In this document: positions 10,655 through 61,890 of the stretch, in pieces | How the letters are laid out: each line of letters starts with the position of its first letter | Numbering within the stretch: position 1 is the stretch's first letter | IMG/VR virus record: IMGVR_UViG_3300003322_000423 | Coordinates: 1-64,000 of that record | From: a virus | Length of the DNA: 64,000 nt | Strand: one strand, 5' to 3' | Position numbers and translations under genes: made by a program | The notes under the pieces: model-generated | What the model was told of the DNA's origin: nothing | Database searches by the model: none | What the model saw: the letters and a program-made list of their open reading frames with translations, nothing else

Positions 10655-12544
10655 ATGGCTGATATTGTCCCAGATGACTTAGTTAGAGGCTATCAAGAGC
10701 TTTTAGCTGCCCGTCCAGCGTATGAACGTGCAGCAGCTTTTTATGAGGGAACTGTAGATGAAGTATATGCATCGGCCAAGGTTACACGTCTGCTGACAAA
10801 ATTCGGCCTTGATGCTATTGACAGCTTCAATTTTGCCCACATTCCCGTGGATGCCATTGCTAATAAGCTGCACATCAATGCCGTGACCGTAGACGACGGC
10901 ATGGAAGACCCGTCTCAACTATTGTCTGCAAAAGCAGCTCAAGCGTCAAAGCAAGGGCAATTTACCCCTCCTCAAAACACTTTTAAAAAGCCAGGTTCTA
11001 CAGACAATTCAACACCGGGGGCCTCTTCAGAGAAAGCTCAATCTGTAAGCAAGCCTACAGATATTCCTGTAAAGAAGCCAGGCCCTAACTTTGCCCGCCC
11101 ACAAGACACTTTTAACAAGACGGCTAACCCTGTCAACCAGATTATTGAAGATCTGTGGGAATACAACGAACTTGGGGAAGAACTTCCAAACCTTCACCGT
11201 AACATCGGTAAGTACGGTGATTATTACATGCTGGTCTGGCCCGTCGTTGGTGATGACGAGTCAGATAAGGGTAAGGCTTACGACCCTAAAACCACAGCAG
11301 CCGCTCTAAGTGGGGTATCTGTACCGAGTGAAGAGCAGTCAGACCCCCTAGAAGACCCTGCTACTAGTCCAAGTAAGAGTATAGTAGCTGTGGACATGAT
11401 TTGTCATGATCCGTTGACTACTCGTGCATTTTACGACACGGAAAACCCAAGAAAGATGCTTTACGTGCTCAGATCTTGGGAAGAAAATGAAGGTCAAAAT
11501 CTAATAGTACGGGCTAATCTTTACTACAAAGATCGCATTGAGCGTTGGATGCATAAAGGACGTCCTCCGAAGCGCAGAAATTCACAAAACAAGTGGATAC
11601 CTTACGTTGAGGATGGTTCCCAGGCAGTATTGCCCAACCCGTTCGATCAGATTCCGTTTTTCCACTACCGTACAGACCGTACATACGGAAAGCCTGACCA
11701 TCTGTATGCCTATGGCCCCCAGCTAGCTATCAATAAGCTCGTAACCAGCCACTTGGCAACTGTTGATTATCAGTCATTCCCCCAGCGATATGCACTTACA
11801 GATCCTACAGCAGATCCGTCATCCCTACAGGGCGTGGACAATGATCCATTCTCTCCAGAAGACGACGGAGACCCTGAGGACGACAACTTTACACGTCTTG
11901 ATGCTGACCCATCATCTGTATGGACGCTTCAAGGTTTCAAATCCGTAGGACAATTCCAGGCAGCCGATCCTAAGGCATACCTAGACCCGTTTGACAGATA
12001 TGTCAAAGCCATGTCTCAGGTTACTGGAATTCCTCTCCACATGTTTGATAAGACCGGTGAACGTCCTCCAAGTGGGGAGAACATTCGTCAGGTCAACGAA
12101 CAGATGAACTCCAAGGCTGAGACACGTCAGCTAGGAGTCGGTGCAACGCACCGAAATGCCTTCACATTTGCTCTTAACCTTCTAGGTCAAGAAGTAGAGC
12201 GTGTGAAAATAACCTGGCGCCCTCTTGAGGTTGTTACTGACCTTGCAGGATGGCAGGCGATTAATGAGAAGCAGCTAGCGGGTGTTCCTGCTGAGGTGAC
12301 TCTTATTGAGGCTGGCTACCTTCCCGAAGAAGTGGCTCCGTGGAAGGACGAGTGGGATCGTCAGGCTATTGAGGCTCAGAAAATTGAGCAGCAACAGCTT
12401 GAGATTCAGCAAAGCCAGATTTCTTCATCAAACGTGGTTCGTTATTCAGGCGCTCGTAAAAACGTTCGTCAGGCAACCACATCTAATGGCACACCACGTC
12501 CCGGATCTAATGGAGCGGGCAATCAAAATGGTGGCAAAAAGTAA
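10655..12544 (+). CDS. Portal protein (SPP1 gp6-like) with low-complexity insertions
   Basis: Position after terL; FYEG...NF...PVDA start; NPF..IPFF, FPQRY and PSGE motifs. Confidence 0.88.
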   Translation: MADIVPDDLVRGYQELLAARPAYERAAAFYEGTVDEVYASAKVTRLLTKFGLDAIDSFNFAHIPVDAIANKLHINAVTVDDGMEDPSQLLSAKAAQASKQGQFTPPQNTFKKPGSTDNSTPGASSEKAQSVSKPTDIPVKKPGPNFARPQDTFNKTANPVNQIIEDLWEYNELGEELPNLHRNIGKYGDYYMLVWPVVGDDESDKGKAYDPKTTAAALSGVSVPSEEQSDPLEDPATSPSKSIVAVDMICHDPLTTRAFYDTENPRKMLYVLRSWEENEGQNLIVRANLYYKDRIERWMHKGRPPKRRNSQNKWIPYVEDGSQAVLPNPFDQIPFFHYRTDRTYGKPDHLYAYGPQLAINKLVTSHLATVDYQSFPQRYALTDPTADPSSLQGVDNDPFSPEDDGDPEDDNFTRLDADPSSVWTLQGFKSVGQFQAADPKAYLDPFDRYVKAMSQVTGIPLHMFDKTGERPPSGENIRQVNEQMNSKAETRQLGVGATHRNAFTFALNLLGQEVERVKITWRPLEVVTDLAGWQAINEKQLAGVPAEVTLIEAGYLPEEVAPWKDEWDRQAIEAQKIEQQQLEIQQSQISSSNVVRYSGARKNVRQATTSNGTPRPGSNGAGNQNGGKK

Positions 12545-40905: not shown

Positions 40906-41523
40906 CTAGAAGATTAAACACCAGTAACCGCCGTATCCACCTATACCCACTCTGTTTACACCTGTAGGAATCATGGAAGGGTCTGGCTGTCCGCTGGCTG
41001 ACATGGAACACACCGGATCTCCGACAACTCCCCTAGCAGCCATCCTTTGGGCAGCAAGTACCGCTGTACGTGAGGTATACCACTCAGTGGTTGCACCTGT
41101 CGCACTCGCAGGAGGCGTGGTAGAGGTGGTCGGTACCGAAGTCGTAGGTGTCGATTTCGGGATTGCAGTCGGTACAGGCACCGCAGGCGTCCCAGTCTTC
41201 GGGGTCGACGGCGCCACAGGTTTCGGAGAGACAGGTGAAGTAGTAGGTGTCACAGACACAGGGCTCTTCGTGGGTTTCGGCTTGTGAGGCTTCTTCGTTG
41301 CTGATGGCTTCACCTGCTTGGGTAAAAGATCGTGAGGTATAAACGGATCAGGGGCCTGACCTGAATACGTCGGGCGTTCAGGTTTGTCCGCCTTGACCTG
41401 AACAGTAGCACCTGCTACCACAAACGCCAATAGGGACCCGGCAAATAGAACCAAGGTCCCTACTGCGGCTATGATCTTAGGAAAGACCTGGACCCGCAGT
41501 GGCTTGCGGTAATGTGGCTGCAT
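40906..41523 (-). CDS. Membrane-anchored Pro/Thr-rich protein
   Basis: TM helix, long P/T/K linker, small C-terminal domain with 2 Cys. Confidence 0.7.
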   Translation of the reverse strand: MQPHYRKPLRVQVFPKIIAAVGTLVLFAGSLLAFVVAGATVQVKADKPERPTYSGQAPDPFIPHDLLPKQVKPSATKKPHKPKPTKSPVSVTPTTSPVSPKPVAPSTPKTGTPAVPVPTAIPKSTPTTSVPTTSTTPPASATGATTEWYTSRTAVLAAQRMAARGVVGDPVCSMSASGQPDPSMIPTGVNRVGIGGYGGYWCLIF

Positions 41524-49050: not shown

Positions 49051-49905
49051 ATGGCTCAGCACACATCACAACCCGGCTTGGCTCAGCCTGGTTTGCTTAT
49101 TCCGGGTTTTCCGGGAGACTGGACCACTTCTGACAGTGAATCCATGTCCTTGGTGGATTCCTCTGTAGTAGCCCTCAACAGTACTGATTCAGTGAGTTTC
49201 ACCGATCTGTCCACTCTGACGCTGACCTCTTCCGACGGTCTTACCCTGACGGACACTGAGACGCCTGCCGCTGCTGTATTGTTCAACTCTGATTCTATAT
49301 TCATTGTTGATACTTCTGTGCGTCTGGCCACTGACAGTCAGGCGGGCAGAGATCTTGTACAAGGCCCGGCTCTTGTATATGTGGCTGATTACGGAACCCC
49401 GGAGCCGACAGATATGTCATCCCTTAATCCTGCGGTATGGACATCCCTGGGAGGCACGCTAGGAGGGGTGGAAATAGTTATAAGTCAGACCCTAGAGGAC
49501 AAGGCAAAGACTGTACAACAGCCTGATTCATCCATGGGACGATACGTAAAACGGTCTATGACAGCAAAGATGAATTTGGCTGAAGTGACATTACAGAATC
49601 TTTTATATGCCGCAAATGTGGGCTCTGTAACTTCAGGTGCAGGTTACTCCTATTTCTTGCCAGGAACCGTTGACAGAGCAACACCCTTGACGTACAAAAC
49701 CGTGATCATAGACGGTTGGGCACCTGCCAAGGATGTAAACAGTCAGGTGACAAAAAGACGTAGACTCATAATGAGGAAATGCCTGTCGACGGATTCTTCA
49801 GTTGTCTCGTATTCCAAAGAAAAGCAGACTACCCAATCTGTGCTCTGGACAGTTCACGGCATTTCGGATTCCGTGACCCCGTTCAAGATAATAGATGAAG
49901 AGTAG
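49051..49905 (+). CDS. Tail-tube paralogue with an S/T/D-rich N-terminal extension
   Basis: C-terminal ~190 aa align by eye with 16947-17522 (LVQGPA, WT.LGGT, LAE.T.QNL.YA, KRR...R..LS.D, PFKIIDE). Confidence 0.85.
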   Translation: MAQHTSQPGLAQPGLLIPGFPGDWTTSDSESMSLVDSSVVALNSTDSVSFTDLSTLTLTSSDGLTLTDTETPAAAVLFNSDSIFIVDTSVRLATDSQAGRDLVQGPALVYVADYGTPEPTDMSSLNPAVWTSLGGTLGGVEIVISQTLEDKAKTVQQPDSSMGRYVKRSMTAKMNLAEVTLQNLLYAANVGSVTSGAGYSYFLPGTVDRATPLTYKTVIIDGWAPAKDVNSQVTKRRRLIMRKCLSTDSSVVSYSKEKQTTQSVLWTVHGISDSVTPFKIIDEE

Positions 49906-54452: not shown

Positions 54453-54526
54453 TGGTGGCGCCGCCCCGAGTCGCACGGGGGTCAAAGGGTTATGAGCCCT
54501 TTATGGAACTCCTCCACTACAGCGCA
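54453..54526 (-). tRNA. tRNA-fMet (CAT), CCA encoded
   Basis: Three G-C pairs closing the anticodon stem, 1:72 mismatch, T-loop UGCGACU. Confidence 0.8.
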
Positions 54527-54527
54527 G

Positions 54528-54601
54528 TAGTTCTGACGGGATTCGAACCCGTGATCTTCTCCTTATGAGGGAGCTGCCCTAAACCACTAGGCCACAGAAC
54601 T
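54528..54601 (-). tRNA. tRNA-Met or Ile2 (CAT)
   Basis: Cloverleaf; loop CTCATAA. Confidence 0.8.
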
Positions 54602-54672
54602 ATAGAAAGGAACAATGTCAGGTACAGCCGTGTCTCCTGATGTGGCCTGGCCCAGCTACTCATTGTTCCTTG

Positions 54673-54747
54673 TTCCACCGACGGGATTTGAACCCGTGAC
54701 CAACACATTATCAGTGTGTCACTCTTACCAGACTGAGTTACGGTGGA
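54673..54747 (-). tRNA. tRNA-Ile (GAT)
   Basis: ACACA-CTGATAA-TGTGT. Confidence 0.9.
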
Positions 54748-54826
54748 GATGTGACGGTTTTCCTGAGGCCCTACTTAAAGGATGCTGCGCTCTTGCCCCT
54801 CAGAGGTCGAACCGTCAAACCTCGCG

Positions 54827-54899
54827 CGACCTAGACGGGGATCGAACCCGCGACTTCCACCTTGACAGGGTGGTGCTCTAACCACTGAACTACTAGGCC
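54827..54899 (-). tRNA. tRNA-Asp (GTC)
   Basis: CCACC-CTGTCAA-GGTGG. Confidence 0.92.
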
Positions 54900-55083
54900 A
54901 AAACCCTGCCCACAAGGAACAGGATGGGTTATAAATTATACACATATTTCGTAAGGTTCAAGAGACTTTCCCACCTGGTACAGAGGTGTTCTCCATTGCT
55001 ACTTACGATCCTTTATTACCCGTCTCTTTTCAGGGAGCGATTCCGTGTACCCGGCAGACGGAGCGTGATGTGTTTACGCCGCG

Positions 55084-55160
55084 TGGAGCTAGACCGAATT
55101 GCACGGTCCTCCGGAAGCCTCCGCATGCGGCCCTACTTCCGTCGAAACTAAATTAGCCCC
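55084..55160 (-). ncRNA. Mini-tmRNA-like RNA (tRNA-like domain only, no mRNA-like domain)
   Basis: GGGGCUA/UAGCUCC-A acceptor with G3.U, unpaired D-loop ending UUCGAC, GGAAGU/GCUUCC helix, GGAG linker, T-arm. Confidence 0.7.
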
Positions 55161-55207
55161 TTGCCCGGTTTTTGTGTATACCTGAACCGTGGTGACAAAA
55201 CAGGTAG

Positions 55208-55280
55208 TGGAGATGACAGGACTCGAACCCGCCGCCTTCTGCGTGCAAAGCAGACGCTCTTCCCGATGAGCTACATCCCC
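55208..55280 (-). tRNA. tRNA-Ala (TGC)
   Basis: G3.U70; loop TTTGCAC. Confidence 0.92.
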
Positions 55281-55336
55281 AAACCAGGTTTTTGATAACG
55301 CAGAACCCCGTCTCCCGAAAACTGCGTGTCTAAGTG

Positions 55337-56452
55337 TTATTCGTTGCAATTACAGTCTAATTGTAGCGGAGGTTCCCAGATTTGTCCATCCCCTGGAACC
55401 TGCGATTTAGGCTGATAGTCCAGCGGACTGAACAACAGATTTGCATTCGTCTCGTTACGTGTACCAAGCCATAGATCTACACCTTGATATGGTACACCGT
55501 CGACCACGCTGACTGTTCTGGGCTGTCCGCCACATGAGGCCCCGTTGAAGATGCGACGCCCGTATACCGGCGCACCCCAACCGACGTTCCCGGGAGCTGT
55601 CCAGCCGCTGTAGAGACTGGAACTAGTGGCATATCCGATCGGGGTACCTGCACAGTAGCCGCATCCCTGATCAGAATATGTTATCACATATTCCTGTGAT
55701 CTTTCATCCCAGAAACCGCCGGGACCTTCCGTATGACTCAGACTTGCCACATTCGTGACACCTAGAGCCGTCCCCCCGCTACCCCAGTAATTCAATTGCT
55801 GGATATTCATTCCAGTATTGCCGGGAAGAGTGCAGATGATAGCTGGTGGTCCGGAGCGAGCCTGGATTATACCGAAGTCCCCGTTGCCCGTACAGATACT
55901 CAGATTAGGTTTGTTGTATGAGCCCCAGGGCTTTCCTGCATTAGGCCCACAAGGTCCGGCAGGCCCGTTGCATCCCATAACGTTATACCCGCTCTGGGCG
56001 CCGTCAGACTTGTGCCTAGGGGCGTTGAACCAGAGTATGAACGCGCCGTCGTTGTGGCCCCAGCCTGTACGCTGGATCATCCGAGGATTGAAACATCCCT
56101 GGCCGGTACCACCACACGTGGTCTGCCACGAAACCTTCTTGTACGGGTCCTGTTCGTTAGGGTTGAACAACAGCTTAGGTTCAGACCATGGACCCTCTAT
56201 GCTCTGGGAGGTGCTCACACCGAAGCCACAGAAAGGTGTGTTTTTGATACTCCACTGGAAACCACATTTGTACATGGTTCCGTACAGGTAATAGGTGTTC
56301 CCGAACTTGGCTAAATGTCCATCGTGAAGATCTACACCCTGAATGTTCAGAGGTCTAGGATCAGACTGAGTCTCGGCGTTTACAGGTCCGGAAAATAAAA
56401 ATACAGTTGCCGTTACGACAACTGCGACAAGTAATCTATATAGCCGTTTCAC
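55337..56452 (-). CDS. Secreted glycoside hydrolase (GH43-like five-bladed beta-propeller)
   Basis: Signal peptide; LHDG.....G.TYYLYG; GPW; EGP; repeated blades. Confidence 0.7.
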   Translation of the reverse strand: MKRLYRLLVAVVVTATVFLFSGPVNAETQSDPRPLNIQGVDLHDGHLAKFGNTYYLYGTMYKCGFQWSIKNTPFCGFGVSTSQSIEGPWSEPKLLFNPNEQDPYKKVSWQTTCGGTGQGCFNPRMIQRTGWGHNDGAFILWFNAPRHKSDGAQSGYNVMGCNGPAGPCGPNAGKPWGSYNKPNLSICTGNGDFGIIQARSGPPAIICTLPGNTGMNIQQLNYWGSGGTALGVTNVASLSHTEGPGGFWDERSQEYVITYSDQGCGYCAGTPIGYATSSSLYSGWTAPGNVGWGAPVYGRRIFNGASCGGQPRTVSVVDGVPYQGVDLWLGTRNETNANLLFSPLDYQPKSQVPGDGQIWEPPLQLDCNCNE

Positions 56453-56473
56453 TGCCCTCTCCTAATAGATAAG

Positions 56474-56547
56474 TAGGCCCGTCGGGATTTGAACCCGCAT
56501 CACCTGTATATAAGACAGGCGCTCTTACCTGATTGAGCTACAGGCCC
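56474..56547 (-). tRNA. tRNA-Ile (TAT)
   Basis: CCTGT-CTTATAT-ACAGG. Confidence 0.85.
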
Positions 56548-56722
56548 ATTGACACTAACCAAGTCTAGGTGTCTGTCCGTGTCATCTGTCTCCGACTACC
56601 GGCTTGTCACTTGGAAATTCTCTCTGATCCGGATGACACTTCGTCCAGAGAACGGGCCTGTGTCGTGGCCCCAGTGCTTGCAGTATCTTACTGACAGATG
56701 GTGTTCAGACTTACAAGCAAAG

Positions 56723-56807
56723 CGGAAGCGGTGGGACTCGAACCCACAAGGATTGGTTACCCAGCCGCTTTCAAGGCGGTGTATCTCTCCCATGTGACAG
56801 CACTTCC
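56723..56807 (-). tRNA. tRNA-Ser (TGA)
   Basis: Loop CTTGAAA; long variable arm; G73. Confidence 0.85.
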
Positions 56808-56810
56808 AGG

Positions 56811-57203
56811 TTACTTCTTAAATCTTTGCCATGTTCGTTCTCTGTGGCAATTAGAACAAACCAAATCACACTTAGCTATTTCGGCTTTGATATCTTCAAC
56901 TGTAGCATGTCTATAGGTGATACCTATGTTGAATAACTTAATCTCATCAGGTCTGTGATCAAAATCCATAACATAGTGGGGGTACTGAACGCCACAATCC
57001 ATACAGGGCTTACCCGCCTTGTAGTCTTGGATGAATTGACGCTTTTCACCCCGCCTAACATGCTGTCTCGATATATTCTTATTCTTTTGATCTACGCCAC
57101 AGTAGTAGGACACAGTGGATTTAGAACATCCTAGTTCCTTAGCTATAGCGTTGTACGTGTAGCCAGCTTCTCTTAACCTAAAGATATCTGCCTCATATGT
57201 CAT
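56811..57203 (-). CDS. HTH + HNH endonuclease; leaderless
   Basis: YNAIAKELGCSKSTVSY; CMDCG...DFDH...EIAKCDLVCSNCHRERT. Confidence 0.88.
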   Translation of the reverse strand: MTYEADIFRLREAGYTYNAIAKELGCSKSTVSYYCGVDQKNKNISRQHVRRGEKRQFIQDYKAGKPCMDCGVQYPHYVMDFDHRPDEIKLFNIGITYRHATVEDIKAEIAKCDLVCSNCHRERTWQRFKK

Positions 57204-57226
57204 GAGGCAAGTATATCAAAGGTTCG

Positions 57227-57300
57227 AGGCCATTACCAGGATCGAACTGGTCCAATGTAGATTTGCAGTCTACCGCTTACTTCCAGCAAGCTCAATGGCC
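57227..57300 (-). tRNA. tRNA-Cys (GCA)
   Basis: GTAGA-CTGCAAA-TCTAC; U73. Confidence 0.88.
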
Positions 57301-57304
57301 ATTA

Positions 57305-57360
57305 GGTGCAGGTGCCGGGACTCGAACCCGGGAGTCATGACCTCCGACCGTCATCGCACC
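57305..57360 (-). ncRNA. D-armless tRNA-like element (56 nt)
   Basis: Perfect T-arm CCGGG-TTCGAGT-CCCGG, one further hairpin, GGTGC/GCACC closing stem. Confidence 0.6.
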
Positions 57361-57368
57361 ATTCCCAG

Positions 57369-57453
57369 CGGAAATGACAGGATTCGAACCTGCGGACCTG
57401 TTACAGTCTCTGCTTTAGCAAAACAGTGCTTTCACCCACTCAGCCACATTTCC
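57369..57453 (-). tRNA. tRNA-Ser (GCT)
   Basis: Loop TTGCTAA; long variable arm. Confidence 0.88.
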
Positions 57454-57456
57454 ATG

Positions 57457-57527
57457 TTCGTCCTACGGATTTCGATACCGCATCTTCGGGCACGTTCCCC
57501 GACGTTCTACCTTTGAACTAAGAACGA
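57457..57527 (-). tRNA. Atypical tRNA-like RNA (ACG centred in a non-canonical loop)
   Basis: Full cloverleaf, but loop GA-ACG-TG and an altered T-loop. Confidence 0.55.
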
Positions 57528-57530
57528 ATG

Positions 57531-57612
57531 TGCTAGAGGCCGGATTTGCACCGACACAGCCTGAGGCGACACTTTTACAGAGTGCGGGGCTCCACTAATG
57601 CCCAGCTCTAGC
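57531..57612 (-). tRNA. tRNA-Tyr (GTA)
   Basis: Loop CTGTAAA; variable arm; T-loop UGCAAAU. Confidence 0.85.
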
Positions 57613-57683
57613 GTGTGGGACCTTTTAACCGGAGTCCCAGACGGAGCATCTTCGGACCTCGTCCCGGTATGTGCTATACCCCG

Positions 57684-57756
57684 TACACCTAGAGAGACTC
57701 GAACTCCCATCCCTGGTTCCGTAGACCAGTGCTCTAATCCTTTGAGCTATAGGTGC
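57684..57756 (-). tRNA. tRNA-Arg (ACG)
   Basis: CTGGT-CTACGGA-ACCAG. Confidence 0.9.
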
Positions 57757-57874
57757 ATTGCCCTAAGCGCCTTGGTGGACGCCTTGCAAATCCGGGCCAG
57801 ACTCAGAGACTCTTGCTAGCTAGAATCTCACAGCGACGTGTCCGTATGAGGTAACAGCGGTCGACTGGCTTGCG

Positions 57875-57946
57875 TCCGGGTGGGGATAATCGAAATCCCT
57901 ATACGACTTCCCAAAAGTCGCGTGTTAACCATTACACTACACCCAG
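57875..57946 (-). tRNA. tRNA-Pro (TGG)
   Basis: CGACT-TTTGGGA-AGTCG. Confidence 0.85.
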
Positions 57947-57950
57947 TCAG

Positions 57951-58021
57951 AGCGATATAGGAGAATCGAACTCCTGTAGTCTGTTTGGAAGACAGAGGCT
58001 TTACCATTAAGCTAATATCGC
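57951..58021 (-). tRNA. tRNA-Gly (TCC)
   Basis: TCTGT-CTTCCAA-ACAGA; U73. Confidence 0.9.
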
Positions 58022-58071
58022 ATTGCTATTTTCGTCCACGTAGGCGCCCTGGAACCGGCATAGCTGCCTCG

Positions 58072-58143
58072 TACCCAGTAACAGATTCGAACTGTTGACA
58101 CGCGCGGTGTAAACGCGATGCTCTTCCCCTGAGCTAACCGGGT
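58072..58143 (-). tRNA. tRNA-Val (TAC)
   Basis: Loop TTTACAC. Confidence 0.88.
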
Positions 58144-58193
58144 TTATGGGCCCCCGGAAAGTTTATAGTCTGTCGGTTCCAGCCCTAGACTTG

Positions 58194-58266
58194 AGCCCCC
58201 AGTACGATTTGAACGCACGACCTGCCGCTTACAAGGCGGCTGCTCTAACCCCTGAGCTATGGAGGC
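58194..58266 (-). tRNA. tRNA-Thr (TGT)
   Basis: GCCGC-CTTGTAA-GCGGC. Confidence 0.9.
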
Positions 58267-58279
58267 ATGTATTTAGTTA

Positions 58280-58352
58280 TGTGACCACAGGGAATCGAAC
58301 CCTGATCTTGCGGACCACAACCGCGTGCACTAGCCATTGTGCTATGGTCACC
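58280..58352 (-). tRNA. tRNA-His (GTG)
   Basis: Loop TTGTGGT; G-1 present. Confidence 0.88.
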
Positions 58353-58353
58353 G

Positions 58354-58427
58354 CTCCCGATCTATGACTCGAACATAGAACCTCTGCGTCCAGAGCGCAG
58401 CGCAACTACCAATTGTGCTAATCGGGA
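58354..58427 (-). tRNA. tRNA-Gln (CTG)
   Basis: CTGCG-CTCTGGA-CGCAG; U1-A72; G73. Confidence 0.88.
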
Positions 58428-58546
58428 TTGATTCAGTTATAAGACCTTACTACCCGACGACCTCGTGCCGCCCTAACCTAACCATGAACGAGAGGGGTTG
58501 CAACCACTGTGACATCTCGTTCCCCTACTTTCCTCGTAAGGTCTCG

Positions 58547-58633
58547 CTCAGGTGGCTGGAATTGAACCAGCGAAGGATTTCTCCGAAACGGTTAACAGCC
58601 GCACCCAACATCGCCAACGGTTGGCCCACCTGA
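58547..58633 (-). tRNA. tRNA-Asn (GTT) with an atypical long variable arm
   Basis: GCGG-CTGTTAA-CCGT; extra GGA-GAAA-TCC hairpin; 5-bp D-stem. Confidence 0.8.
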
Positions 58634-58638
58634 TCGCT

Positions 58639-59064
58639 TTATGCAATTATATCTGAACCCGAGTACAACCCTGTTCGGTACAGACGCTTTGCGGTCTTAC
58701 ACCTATCACATCTACAGGTCATCTCGTGATACATTCTAGCAGTGCCGTGGTAGTATTCACCTCGAATACCTTTATTCCAAGGCGTGATGGCACCGTCTCT
58801 CCACTGCTGTTTAGTCTTTTCATCATGACAAGTTTTACACACTACTTCACACTTGTCAAGTTCTTCTAGAATACTTTTCCAGGATCTATCTAAACCCGCC
58901 CCGGATAAAGTAAACGACTTTGTAGTGGGGTCTTTGTGGTTAAGCTCTAAATCATCAGGACTGCCACAGTCTACGCATTCACTACCGGACAGGTCAAATA
59001 ATTTTTGTCGACGTGTTTTACGTCGATTGGCCATATAGGTCTTCATATATTCGTTAGTAGGCAT
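58639..59064 (-). CDS. HNH endonuclease with a C-terminal HGT...CRCxxC motif; leaderless
   Basis: CVDCGS...LELNH.DP..KSF...ELDKCEVVCKTCH..KT; HGTARMY...CRCDRC. Confidence 0.85.
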   Translation of the reverse strand: MPTNEYMKTYMANRRKTRRQKLFDLSGSECVDCGSPDDLELNHKDPTTKSFTLSGAGLDRSWKSILEELDKCEVVCKTCHDEKTKQQWRDGAITPWNKGIRGEYYHGTARMYHEMTCRCDRCKTAKRLYRTGLYSGSDIIA

Positions 59065-59070
59065 ACATTC

Positions 59071-59099
59071 ATTTTAACATGAAATGCTCTACCAGTAAA
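59071..59099 (-). promoter_or_regulatory. Internal promoter for the leaderless HNH mRNA
   Basis: TTTACT-17 bp-TAAAAT with TGn, 6 nt before the ATG. Confidence 0.7.
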
Positions 59100-59102
59100 G
59101 AG

Positions 59103-59173
59103 CAGGCCCAGAAAGAGTCGAACTTTCCCTTTGAGACTTGGAAACTCATGTGCTTCCGATACACTATGGACCC
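59103..59173 (-). tRNA. tRNA-Trp (CCA)
   Basis: Loop TTCCAAG; G73. Confidence 0.8.
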
Positions 59174-59217
59174 GTGAGAGACCATGATAACACATAGTCT
59201 CTGTTTTGTCTATTCTG

Positions 59218-59287
59218 CCGGGATACTGGGATTCGAACCCAGGTAGGGCTTCAGGGACCCGGTACTTGGCCGCTGTACGATACCCCT
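59218..59287 (-). tRNA. Atypical tRNA-like RNA (CTG-centred loop with C33)
   Basis: Perfect T-arm, GTAC/GTAC D-stem, loop CCCTGAA, 2-nt variable region. Confidence 0.55.
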
Positions 59288-59484
59288 ACCCACAAGGTCG
59301 ACTTCTTGCGGGCTCCCCTCAGCGTTTCGAACCGCATTGAGGGGCAACAGAAAACGTGTCAGCTTTCGCTGATCAAACCGGGCACCGAGGATATCTTAAA
59401 CCAGACTTCTAATCCCGCAGGACGTTGTCACTGGCTCGGTGCGCCCCCTTGTGCACAGGGCGCTAAGGCGACCCAGGGGGTTTG

Positions 59485-59557
59485 CGCTCTTGGAGGGATT
59501 CGAACCCCCGACCTTGACGATAGAAGCGTCTTGCTCTTTCCACTGAGCTACAAGAGC
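59485..59557 (-). tRNA. tRNA-Arg (TCT)
   Basis: GACG-CTTCTAT-CGTC. Confidence 0.9.
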
Positions 59558-59623
59558 TTGGAGCCTGCACGTTGCCCTCAATGGCAGGCTCTATTCAGTT
59601 GTATTGACCCATCCTAAGGTCAG

Positions 59624-59698
59624 TACCGGTGACGGGGCTCGAACCCGCGTTCTTCTGACTGAGAATCAGATGAGCTTTGCCAACAGCTCCACACCGGC
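59624..59698 (-). tRNA. tRNA-Glu (CTC)
   Basis: TCTGA-TTCTCAG-TCAGA. Confidence 0.85.
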
Positions 59699-59799
59699 AA
59701 GCCCACAGCTTTTATTTCGGTACCTTCGGGCTGGAGTTCCCAGGTCTTACTTAGGCTGTGGCGGTATTCCAGAGTTACTTCGAATAGCCTCTAGAACCG

Positions 59800-59876
59800 T
59801 ATCCGAGACCGGAATCGAACCGGCGTCTTCTCCTGATTGAAAGTCAGGGCACCCCTGCCAACAGAGTAACTCGGAC
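59800..59876 (-). tRNA. tRNA-Glu (TTC)
   Basis: CCTGA-CTTTCAA-TCAGG. Confidence 0.85.
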
Positions 59877-59967
59877 TTGGACCGGTTTTTGTTTCTAACC
59901 AGAGCACTCCGGGGGCTACCCGGCACTATACTGGCCCTAATTCAGAACCCGTCCCCGAAACTGAACG

Positions 59968-60043
59968 TACCTGTGAAAGGACTCGAACCTTCAAACCTTC
60001 TGATCCTAAGTCAGACGCCTCTACCAAATTGGGCTACACAGGC
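59968..60043 (-). tRNA. tRNA-Leu (TAG), short variable region
   Basis: TCTGA-CTTAGGA-TCAGA; no long variable arm. Confidence 0.85.
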
Positions 60044-60127
60044 TTAAAACCCTGGGCTGGAAGCATCCAGCAGTATGGAAACTTATAGTGGTTGACTTGT
60101 GAGGGAAAACGCACTACCCAGGGTCAG

Positions 60128-60201
60128 TACTCCGACTCGGACTTGAACCGAGGACACGCGGATTAAGAGTCCGCTGCTACTACCAACTGAGCTACCGGAG
60201 C
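60128..60201 (-). tRNA. tRNA-Lys (CTT)
   Basis: GCGGA-CTCTTAA-TCCGC. Confidence 0.9.
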
Positions 60202-60505
60202 GAGAAAAAACTATTCTAGCATACCCCGAAGGGTGGCGGGTGGGGTGATTTCCCACAACAGAGGGCAGGCCATTAGCCGATTTAATTACCTCTGAACCAC
60301 ACGTTAGCCGCTAAGCACGAATTCAGGCGCATCGCTAAATGCCCTTCCGTCAACTTCCTCACCGATTGGCTCTGGATAAAGGGGTGGCCCTTTGGGGTGC
60401 CCGCCCAAGCTTACGTTTGTCTTCCGCCGTGTGTACAATCCATCCCCCGATCTGCATAGGGGATCGTTTCTGTCACCGCCCACACTTCCCGTCGGAAGTG
60501 TGTTG

Positions 60506-60585
60506 TACCCACAGAGGGATTCGAACCCTCACGCCATAAGGCATCGCTTTTGAGGCGACTGACTATACCGTTCGTCTATGCGGGC
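60506..60585 (-). tRNA. tRNA-Leu (CAA)
   Basis: TCGC-CTCAAAA-GCGA; variable arm GCC-TTAT-GGC; A73. Confidence 0.87.
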
Positions 60586-60759
60586 CTCACCCTTGATTGC
60601 GCTACCACGCTCAAGGGCTTACCTCAGCTCTAGGTGAGGTCACAACAGCTCTCTAAACCCGGAGCCAGGGCGCCTCACGGTTTATGGTAGCTCCGTGAGA
60701 ACTTCAAGCTTGTGTCACCCCTCTGCCGGGGGGAAAGGAAACTCGGCAGAGAGGGACGG

Positions 60760-61161
60760 CTAAAGGTCTTCCACCATTATATGGAAACCGTATGCATAGT
60801 AGAAAGGGTTCCCCGCTGACCAGCCAACATCAAGCTTGAGCACATCACCCATGTCGGCGTAAATGTGCCAAGTCTGGTATCCGTCAGTCGTACCCACGCC
60901 CGTGATAATGTGGTCAACCATTTCGGGGTGGAGCAGAAAACCTTCAAGTTCTGTATAGGCGCAACAGTCGCTCTCACCGACAAGGGTCACTGCTTTACCG
61001 TTGTCCAGTATGATCCGGCCTTCGGGTGACACGCTGACGATTTTGTGGCCTACGACAGCTTCAGCAAGAGCATTCTTGCTGTCAACCATTGTACCGTTGT
61101 CTGTTTCTTCGTCAAGGATTTCCTCTTTGTACAGACGTTTGTGCTTGTACTTTTTGGCCAT
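60760..61161 (-). CDS. Hypothetical protein within the tRNA array
   Basis: AAAGGAG RBS; DCCA and GNPFYYAYGF motifs. Confidence 0.75.
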   Translation of the reverse strand: MAKKYKHKRLYKEEILDEETDNGTMVDSKNALAEAVVGHKIVSVSPEGRIILDNGKAVTLVGESDCCAYTELEGFLLHPEMVDHIITGVGTTDGYQTWHIYADMGDVLKLDVGWSAGNPFYYAYGFHIMVEDL

Positions 61162-61180
61162 GATAACTCCTTTCAAAAAG

Positions 61181-61252
61181 TAGCTCCCCGGAGACTCGAA
61201 CTCCGCACTCAGGCACTTCACGCCCGTGCTTTTCCTGATAAGCTAAAGAGCC
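61181..61252 (-). tRNA. tRNA-Phe (GAA), atypical anticodon loop
   Basis: CGGGC-GTGAAGT-GCCTG. Confidence 0.75.
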
Positions 61253-61405: not shown

Positions 61406-61434
61406 AACTTACCTGATCTGTGGAGGTCTGTCAA
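61406..61434 (-). promoter_or_regulatory. Promoter of the tRNA operon
   Basis: TTGACA-17 bp-TAAGTT; the -35 overlaps the deaminase stop codon. Confidence 0.7.
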
Positions 61435-61800
61435 CCCCTGATTCGCTCTATCTCGAAGATTCCTTCATTGGTGGTGTAAACGACCTTCTTCACACCGGCC
61501 AGTAAGAGAGCGTTGTAGCAGGCTGGACAAGGTCTCGCCATGCGTGGGTCACCTGCCCGGTTGACCCGTGCAACGTAGATGGTCGCTCCCTTTGACCGAT
61601 AAAAGGCACTCCCGTAGGACGGCCATCTCCGCATGGGTGGTGGCGTTCATGTGGTCTATGTCGGGGCGGTTGCGGAAGCGGTTGGTGGACCAGCCGAGCA
61701 CGTTGCCGTTGTTGACTACAAGGGCGCCAAGCTGCCAGCGATATGTGGAAGTTGAGGCAACGTCAAGCGCCCTCTTGATATAGCGTCTATGGGTGTTCAT
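61431..61800 (-). CDS. Zn-dependent cytidine/dCMP/tRNA deaminase-family protein split by a +1 frameshift (~122 aa fused)
   Basis: HAE in frame 0 (61549-61800) and GATIYVAR...PCPAC in the +1 frame (to 61431); junction CTT-TTA at 61605-61600. Confidence 0.85.
61600..61613 (-). promoter_or_regulatory. Candidate prfB-like +1 frameshift cassette GGGAG-TGC-CTT-TTA
   Basis: Internal SD 3 nt before a CUU-U shift site; A-site codon UUA. Confidence 0.6.
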
Positions 61801-61890
61801 ATGTCTCCTGACATGTCAAAGGGCCGGATGCGGTTCTCACCTTGTCCATCCGGCCCGTTCCCCGAGCTGTCCCCTCCTAGGCTCGGGAGA

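Follow-up and report, generated by a model that had tools for sequence, protein, structure and literature searches.

To our knowledge, natural and conserved programmed +1 frameshifts in bacteria and phages are very few, with prfB, the RF2 gene, as the textbook case. The prfB cassette reads AGGGGG-UAU-CUU-UGA-C, and the yeast element Ty1 undergoes a +1 frameshift of the "hungry codon" type at CUU-AGG-C. Another form of recoding, a translational bypassing triggered by UUA in the terminase gene of phage Hau3, was reportedly described by Smith et al. in 2013. Here we describe a phage gene for a zinc deaminase, carried by a 64,000-nucleotide (nt) stretch of viral DNA (positions 1 to 64,000 of the IMG/VR record IMGVR_UViG_3300003322_000423; "the window" denotes this whole stretch), whose two halves lie in different reading frames. 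Synthesis of the enzyme likely needs an RF2-style programmed +1 ribosomal frameshift at a CUU codon followed by the sense codon UUA.

Published work on these systems sets the frame for the comparison. UUA-triggered bypassing in the terminase gene of the Streptomyces phage Hau3 has been proposed and partly tested; 7–10 nt are bypassed, and 3 of 100 terminase genes show this arrangement (Antonov et al. 2023, PMC10732093). A −1 frameshift at A_CGA_AAG with an upstream Shine-Dalgarno (SD) sequence has been reported for the Bacillus subtilis gene cdd (mentioned in PMC5009743). None of 2,658 surveyed Actinomycetota has the prfB frameshift, and the prfB motif shifts at only ~6.6% in M. smegmatis (PMC12421855).

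The window comprises the first 64 kb of a 98,589-nt viral contig with ~50% G+C and a CheckV completeness of ~85%. The deaminase gene and the elements at its junction are listed in Table 1. An earlier note, made from the DNA letters, had read the zinc-deaminase motifs as split between HAE in frame 0 and PCxxC in frame +1, and we find them so arranged on the minus strand. The junction letters are cgg gag tgc CTT TTA tcg, in agreement with the CGG-GAG-UGC-CUU-UUA-U given in that note, including GGGAG 3 nt before CUU. Read without a shift, the open reading frame (ORF; 61800–61549) continues to a TGA 17 codons past TTA and gives, as had been predicted, an 83-amino-acid (aa) product without the PCxxC ligands, and the +1 frame, which contains PCPAC, is open from 61634 to the stop at 61433–61431. 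When CTTT is read as a single Leu, the joined product (P0001) has the ~122 aa and the plausible motif spacing that the note had expected, with HAE at residues 56–58 and PCPAC at residues 90–94; its length is that of intact relatives, with which it shares the pattern C-L-x-x-x-[KR]-G. The joined product matches Pfam family PF00383 continuously with 52.9 bits (cut-off 25) over positions 1–101 of 102, as against 27.5 and 22.1 bits for the separate pieces.

Table 1. Coordinates of the split deaminase gene, its junction elements and the downstream tRNA genes named in the text, as positions in the window.
Feature	Position	Strand	Detail	Basis
Ribosome-binding site AGGAG	61805..61809	minus	4 nt upstream of ATG at 61800	sequence reading
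Whole deaminase gene, two frames	61431..61800	minus	joined product P0001, 122 aa, HAE + PCPAC	
Frame-0 ORF	61549..61800	minus	83 aa, HAE (zinc ligand His, catalytic Glu)	ORF and Pfam
Internal SD-like GGGAG	61609..61613	minus	3 nt (TGC, 61608-61606) 5' of the shift codon	sequence and relatives
CTT, putative P-site shift codon	61603..61605	minus		CTT in 5/5 +1 genes with DNA
T4 run at the junction	61601..61604	minus		sequence reading
TTA, frame-0 A-site codon, putative slow codon	61600..61602	minus		invariant in all broken relatives, including L056
+1-frame segment	61431..61601	minus	TAT (Tyr, 61601-61599), ...KGATIYVARVN...PCPAC..., stop 61433-61431	
Second TTA	61503..61505	minus	codon 99 of the joined coding sequence, +1 frame, downstream of the shift site	
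tRNA-Phe(GAA)	61180..61252	minus	first of the 25-tRNA array, directly downstream of the deaminase gene	ARAGORN; synteny kept in relatives
tRNA-Leu(CAA)	60505..60585	minus	second tRNA of the array	position behind the deaminase shared by relatives
tRNA-Leu(UAG)	59967..60043	minus	phage-encoded	

The combination of elements at the junction is singular within this phage. Its ORFs hold 75 in-frame CTT_T sites, an SD-like 4-mer lies within 1–4 nt of 3 of the 75, and the deaminase site is the sole one that has such a 4-mer at 3 nt together with TTA; the cassette at the junction exceeds chance. Four other genes of the window contain an in-frame CTT-TTA (10655-12544, 40906-41523, 49051-49905, and 63238-65781, the portal and DNA polymerase genes among them), none with an SD-like run upstream.

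We searched 5.8 billion proteins for relatives and, in a second search, 1.84 billion cluster representatives, in which the entire deaminase family amounts to 48 clusters only. Intact relatives found in the first of these searches are P0002 (122 aa, 64% identity) and P0003 (120 aa), whose junction region reads ..RQCL[CN]AA[KR]GGT.YVARV... Other relatives are halves of the protein: N-terminal pieces (P0008, P0012, P0017–P0021, P0023, P0028, and P0044) end in ..[CR]-L-L-x.. before a stop, the last of them coming from a more distant cluster with the end ..ARCLLFSQGSDGLRC, and C-terminal pieces (P0025, P0026, and P0036) begin with ..GG[AV]FY[RQ]AKG.TIYVARV... Since L-L in one frame must overlap F-Y in the next, only CTT-TTA-Y is possible at these junctions. 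One N piece (P0012) and one C piece (P0093) are encoded on the same contig of 98,426 nt, and altogether ~10 further relatives, roughly 57–79% identical, have at the protein level the ends or starts that the break predicts. Two N pieces from distant clusters (P0053 and P0088) end directly behind ..KGC, where the shift codon would stand, and may represent the same recoding site with a stop codon in it or merely disrupted genes.

At the DNA level, four metagenome contigs (L052, L053, L057, and L058) carry the 1-nt break at (C/G)(G/C)G-AGG-TG(C/T)-CTT-TTA-C, with PCxxC in frame +1 and an SD-like run of the form GGAGG-TG(C/T)-CTT or GAGG-TGC-CTT. These are homologues with the SD-like run, the 3-nt spacer, CTT-TTA and the frame break together, and the cassette, on whose conservation the earlier note had made its proposal hinge, holds across divergent relatives and is lacking from intact ones. 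In a further relative, L056 (contig OFCZ01000443.1, 1896–1906), the same codon bears two extra nucleotides, GCG-AGG-TGC-TAT-TTA-GCA, and PCxxC lies in frame +2; this gene retains the spacing of the SD-like AGG and the A-site TTA, with TAT-TT in place of CTT_T. Relative to intact genes, the number of extra nucleotides is exactly 1 in the +1 genes and 2 in L056. Searches of 50,697 GenBank phage records with the gene, by blastn and tblastn, gave no match. In IMG/VR, a scan with the window gene's own peptides reached only relatives at or below 46% identity, each aligned within one frame segment, and the alignment of N pieces, used as query, yielded a single intact relative; the junction pattern GARATGGC..TGYCTTTTA brought 11 matches, all by chance and none in a deaminase.

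The SD-like run goes together with the break. GGAG or GAGG ends 3 nt before the shift codon in 6/6 broken genes and in 0/6 close intact relatives compared as DNA (L051, L054, L055, L059, L062, and L065), which have CGT-CAG, AGG-CAA, AGG-CGA, CGC-AAG, GCT-AAG, and AAG-AAG at this position. The Arg before Cys in broken genes is encoded by AGG, the rarest codon of the phage. A Tyr codon (TAY) follows Leu in every +1-broken gene, and intact relatives have C, N, P, or R there, so that the protein sequence does not dictate the TA of TTA. The block GTG(C/T)CTTTTA is invariant among broken genes despite synonymous sites that are close to saturation (proportion of synonymous differences, pS, 0.54–0.79), and the ratio of nonsynonymous to synonymous change (dN/dS) is 0.06–0.25 on both halves; both halves are, judging from these ratios, under purifying selection. 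The place of the frame change is also narrowly bounded. The +1 frame of L057 and L058 is closed by a TAG that precedes TTT by 3 codons, and it offers no start codon ahead of ..ARV; in L052, frame 0 stops 2 codons past TTA (2–17 codons past it across genes). Together these limits confine the change of frame to at most 7 codons across relatives, and CTT_T is the sole site for P-site re-pairing inside this interval. We found no conserved mRNA structure around or downstream of the site, and the covariation term was unfavorable.

These observations bear on whether any recoding takes place. The window is a metagenome-assembled contig, a T4 run is a typical place for an indel, and the +1 ORF of the window begins with an ATG, drawn from cATGcg of HAE, so that an error of sequencing or assembly, a pseudogene left by recent inactivation, or two separate polypeptides that assemble might each be proposed instead. 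We consider this highly improbable, however, and have rejected all three versions on conservation, dN/dS, and the missing start codon: the same break is present as DNA in at least six independent assemblies and as protein ends in ~10 more, dN/dS lies well below 1 on both halves with dS near saturation, the C piece has no conserved start and in L057 and L058 follows closely on a stop, and the SD-like run co-occurs with the break. To judge from this comparison of sequences, the split deaminase seems to be a newly found natural example of programmed frameshifting and not an error. The phylogenetic tree places 12 +1-broken and 4 intact rows in one clade (support 83/85), with L056 outside it and P0044 in a second subclade, nearest to the intact P0048 and L051. 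This pattern implies that the break is long-lived with some reversions or has arisen repeatedly; under either history it is, as far as the tree indicates, tolerated or selected.

The frame could conceivably be restored in another way, by transcriptional slippage with loss of one U, by quadruplet decoding through a special tRNA, or by abundant Phe-tRNA of the phage that reads UUU out of frame after Cys. The last of these would place Phe rather than Leu at the junction and would fit L056 as TGC-[TA]-TTT; in the 1-nt and 2-nt variants alike TTT follows TGC directly in the new frame, in nearly all relatives the next gene downstream is tRNA-Phe(GAA), and a T run sits at the break. We nevertheless regard this group of explanations as very unlikely. 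Runs of T3 and T4 are far shorter than known sites of transcriptional slippage, and a conserved SD-like run spaced at 3 nt implicates the ribosome. A tRNA-Phe gene lies downstream in intact relatives as well, and a search for a frameshift-suppressor tRNA showed no 8-nt anticodon loop in the 25 ordinary tRNAs predicted by ARAGORN, in the Rfam matches, or in two extra weak tRNA-like matches.

In the RF2-style frameshift that we favor, a ribosome translating frame 0 would reach the junction with CUU in the P site and UUA in the A site. The internal SD-like run would pair with the 3' end of 16S rRNA and push the ribosome forward, as in prfB, and while UUA waits for its tRNA the peptidyl-tRNA-Leu would slip from CUU to UUU. 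Translation would resume at UAU (Tyr) and proceed in the +1 frame through the PCxxC zinc ligands, whereas normal decoding of UUA would lead to termination after a short non-conserved tail and hence to an inactive fragment. Active enzyme would come from a fraction of ribosomes only, which is probably small and which should fall as decoding of UUA speeds up. The tRNA that slips may be supplied by the phage, whose predicted tRNA-Leu(UAG) has the anticodon that slips in yeast Ty1 and could decode CUU through wobble pairing and be just as well matched to UUU. From the anatomy of the gene and its conservation we infer a shift by the ribosome and not by the polymerase, slippage of the P-site tRNA, slow decoding of UUA in the host, and the efficiency.

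Several points weigh against this mechanism. RF2-type cassettes support little shifting in E. coli when the A site holds a sense codon, and full-length deaminase may thus be made in very low yield. TTA occurs ~190 times in the phage, the four other in-frame CTT-TTA sites included, and once downstream in the deaminase gene itself, and UUA is only assumed to be slow in the host. L056 requires a net shift of +2 (or −1) that the slip from CUU to UUU does not explain; a net +2 would give the length of its nearest intact relatives (C-Y-...), and −1 at U_UUA one residue more. Furthermore, the tree does not separate a single from a repeated origin of the break, and the DNA basis consists of five +1 genes and one +2 gene, the remaining junctions being deduced from protein ends. 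On balance, the part of the earlier proposal that concerns an RF2-style shift at SD, CUU_U, and UUA finds strong support in the comparison of relatives, while its inverted bldA switch stays a conjecture.

That second part would make the frameshift a sensor of the host's bldA-type tRNA-Leu(UAA), with enzyme made mainly when UUA is slow, as in vegetative Streptomyces, and synthesis off when the tRNA is abundant. It is a sub-hypothesis built on the +1 frameshift, and we think a physiologically meaningful UUA/bldA switch unlikely, although a number of observations are compatible with it. TTA is invariant in the frame-0 A site of all broken genes, even in L056 with its different shift codon; intact relatives lack the Tyr codon imposed by TTA; and broken relatives other than the window gene have no other TTA in the gene. 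The terminase (~50% identity), capsid (45–48%), and portal (~31%) proteins are nearest to those of Streptomyces phages, the capsid and portal matches are confined to actinophages, the 25 phage tRNAs do not include a tRNA-Leu(UAA), and UUA-triggered recoding in the Hau3 terminase is a published precedent (PMC10732093). On the other side, a Streptomyces host is suggested by the similarity of structural genes only, and the invariance of TTA is partly forced by the U needed for re-pairing. The TTA codons (7.6 per 1,000 codons and 10% of Leu codons) also occur in the portal and DNA polymerase genes, and at this frequency a host state without UUA decoding would block the whole infection and not just flip a switch. 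The shifted frame of the window gene itself has TTA at codon 99, past the shift, so that no full-length enzyme would be made if UUA were not decoded at all.

A structural model of the intact relative P0002 (predicted local distance difference test, pLDDT, 87) has the generic alpha/beta fold of cytidine deaminases (CDA). Its Z scores are 13–14.6 against cytidine and dCMP deaminases, 12.9 against the RibD deaminase domain, and 11.6–11.7 against TadA; because the fold is the generic one, no substrate can be assigned, and cytidine, dCMP, RibD, guanine, and TadA types are not separable (Foldseek, VIA-align). The gene product, with its HAE and PCPAC motifs and its Pfam match, is a CDA-fold zinc deaminase. 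The deaminase found no match in a PDB sequence search and reached no NCBIfam equivalog. We considered TadA as an identity and set it aside, because NCBIfam model NF008113 scores 21.4 bits against a cut-off of 150 and TadA structures are not preferred; Joint Genome Institute (JGI) records call some relatives TadA, a product of automatic naming. The split deaminase matches phrog_174 at only 7.5e-19. A second, intact deaminase of 153 aa is encoded on the same contig beyond the window (G000:C1:75754-76215, minus strand) and matches phrog_2369 at 3e-47 and phrog_174 at 1.8e-45. We take it as the canonical dCMP deaminase of the phage; it also gives a partial match to the NCBIfam model for anti-phage dCTP deaminase. 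Intact homologues with 43% identity, in which HAED and PCxxC lie ~33 aa apart, are present in six Streptomyces chromosomes (L066–L071, GTDB), with no tRNA genes within ~2.5 kb on their flanks.

The position of the gene may hold a clue to its role. Where enough DNA flanks the gene in close relatives, an array opening with tRNA-Phe(GAA) and tRNA-Leu(CAA) comes after the deaminase in most of them, whether the gene is broken or intact, and distant homologues (at or below 44% identity) are mostly without this linkage. The position at the head of the array, together with the separate canonical dCMP deaminase, makes a tRNA-related or otherwise special role plausible. Going further, one might picture an RF2-like feedback, in which the deaminase modifies a tRNA of the array (for example C34 to U34 in tRNA-Leu(CAA), or another anticodon-loop base), thereby creates a reader of UUA, speeds up UUA decoding, and so reduces its own frameshifting. 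If this were true, the phage would adjust how well the cell decodes a codon seldom used by its probably actinobacterial host, and its own +1 shift at CUU-UUA would measure the capacity for UUA decoding and switch synthesis off. We hold this to be extremely unlikely. The logic would mirror prfB exactly, the two tRNA genes follow the deaminase in broken and intact close relatives alike, tRNA-Leu(UAA) is missing from the array despite 190 TTA codons, and a separate dCMP deaminase is at hand; however, the fold is generic with TadA not preferred, and intact relatives have the same synteny without any frameshift. Moreover, we know of no C34-to-U34 editing in bacteria or phages.

The array comprises 25 tRNA genes (window positions 54453–61252, minus strand) and has none for Leu(UAA), Tyr, Val, Lys(UUU), or Gln(UUG). 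Many of its tRNAs read A-ending codons (AUA, UCA, CCA, GGA, ACA, GCA, AGA, GAA, and CUA), a pattern that would suit a high-GC host. The predicted tRNA-Leu(CAA) and tRNA-Leu(UAG) are short (81 and 77 nt, respectively; 74–75 nt in the relatives L051, L052, L057, L062, and L065), and the predicted phage tRNA-Leu genes are without the long variable arm usual for bacterial tRNA-Leu. Some of the predictions are odd. ARAGORN reports a tRNA with anticodon ACA ("Cys") at 58071–58143 and an 88-nt "tRNA-Asn" at 58546–58633 that Rfam does not confirm, while Rfam adds a borderline tRNA-like element at 59218–59287 (29 bits, with a degenerate Gln-CUG-like loop) and a fragment of the transfer-messenger RNA (tmRNA) model at 55081–55160 (31.7 bits, below its cut-off), all four on the minus strand. 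A protein gene (DUF7448 / phrog_2131; 60760–61161, minus strand) lies inside the array between tRNA-Phe and tRNA-Leu(CAA); its longest ORF call overlaps tRNA-Phe, and the true start is therefore probably an internal ATG near 61161.

The split gene would carry the prfB architecture (SD, 3 nt, CUU_U) over to a phage gene family unrelated to prfB, the stop being replaced by a rare sense codon. In full-text searches of the literature, we found neither a phage deaminase with a frameshift nor a CUU-UUA site described. If the frameshift is confirmed, it would offer a compact natural cassette for studying how tRNA supply sets frameshift efficiency, the bldA question being testable with a 30-nt reporter, and would add to the Hau3 bypass a second case of UUA-linked recoding in actinophages, one that works by a different mechanism. 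Deaminase ORFs that look "split" or "truncated" beside tRNA arrays would then be one gene, of which annotators should be warned, and a deaminase subfamily at the head of phage tRNA arrays would suggest an unexplored link to tRNA biology.

Among the known systems, prfB is the closest in architecture. Both sites have an internal SD-like run, a 3-nt spacer, and CUU followed by U for re-pairing on UUU, conserved across homologues, and efficiency in prfB is set by slow decoding of the frame-0 A-site codon, as we propose for the deaminase site. They differ in the A site, which holds the stop codon UGA in prfB and the sense codon UUA in all deaminase cases, and in the product, a translation factor as against a phage deaminase, with an autoregulatory link from product to A site known for prfB only. 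The host, to judge from the structural genes, likely belongs to Actinomycetota, the one large phylum to have lost the prfB frameshift entirely (PMC12421855), and if it does, the weakness or absence of the prfB shift there would make a rare sense codon a sensible substitute for UGA. The Ty1 site resembles the deaminase site in that CUU is read by a tRNA-Leu able to re-pair in the +1 frame while a rare sense codon in the A site causes a pause, but it belongs to a eukaryote, lacks a stimulatory SD, and brings the tRNA onto UUA instead of UUU. In Hau3, as here, a phage gene is interrupted right after UUA, an internal SD is the proposed stimulator, and the supply of UUA decoding would serve as a read-out of host state; the gap in Hau3, however, is 7–10 nt, whereas in the deaminase gene one nucleotide would be skipped at a classical slippery CUU_U and its break is conserved through the gene family. 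The B. subtilis gene cdd also encodes a deaminase of the CDA family and is subject to SD-stimulated ribosomal frameshifting, but its shift is −1, lies at the end of the gene, extends the protein, and is deemed incidental, whereas the shift in the phage deaminase would be +1, in the middle of the gene, and obligatory for the zinc site.

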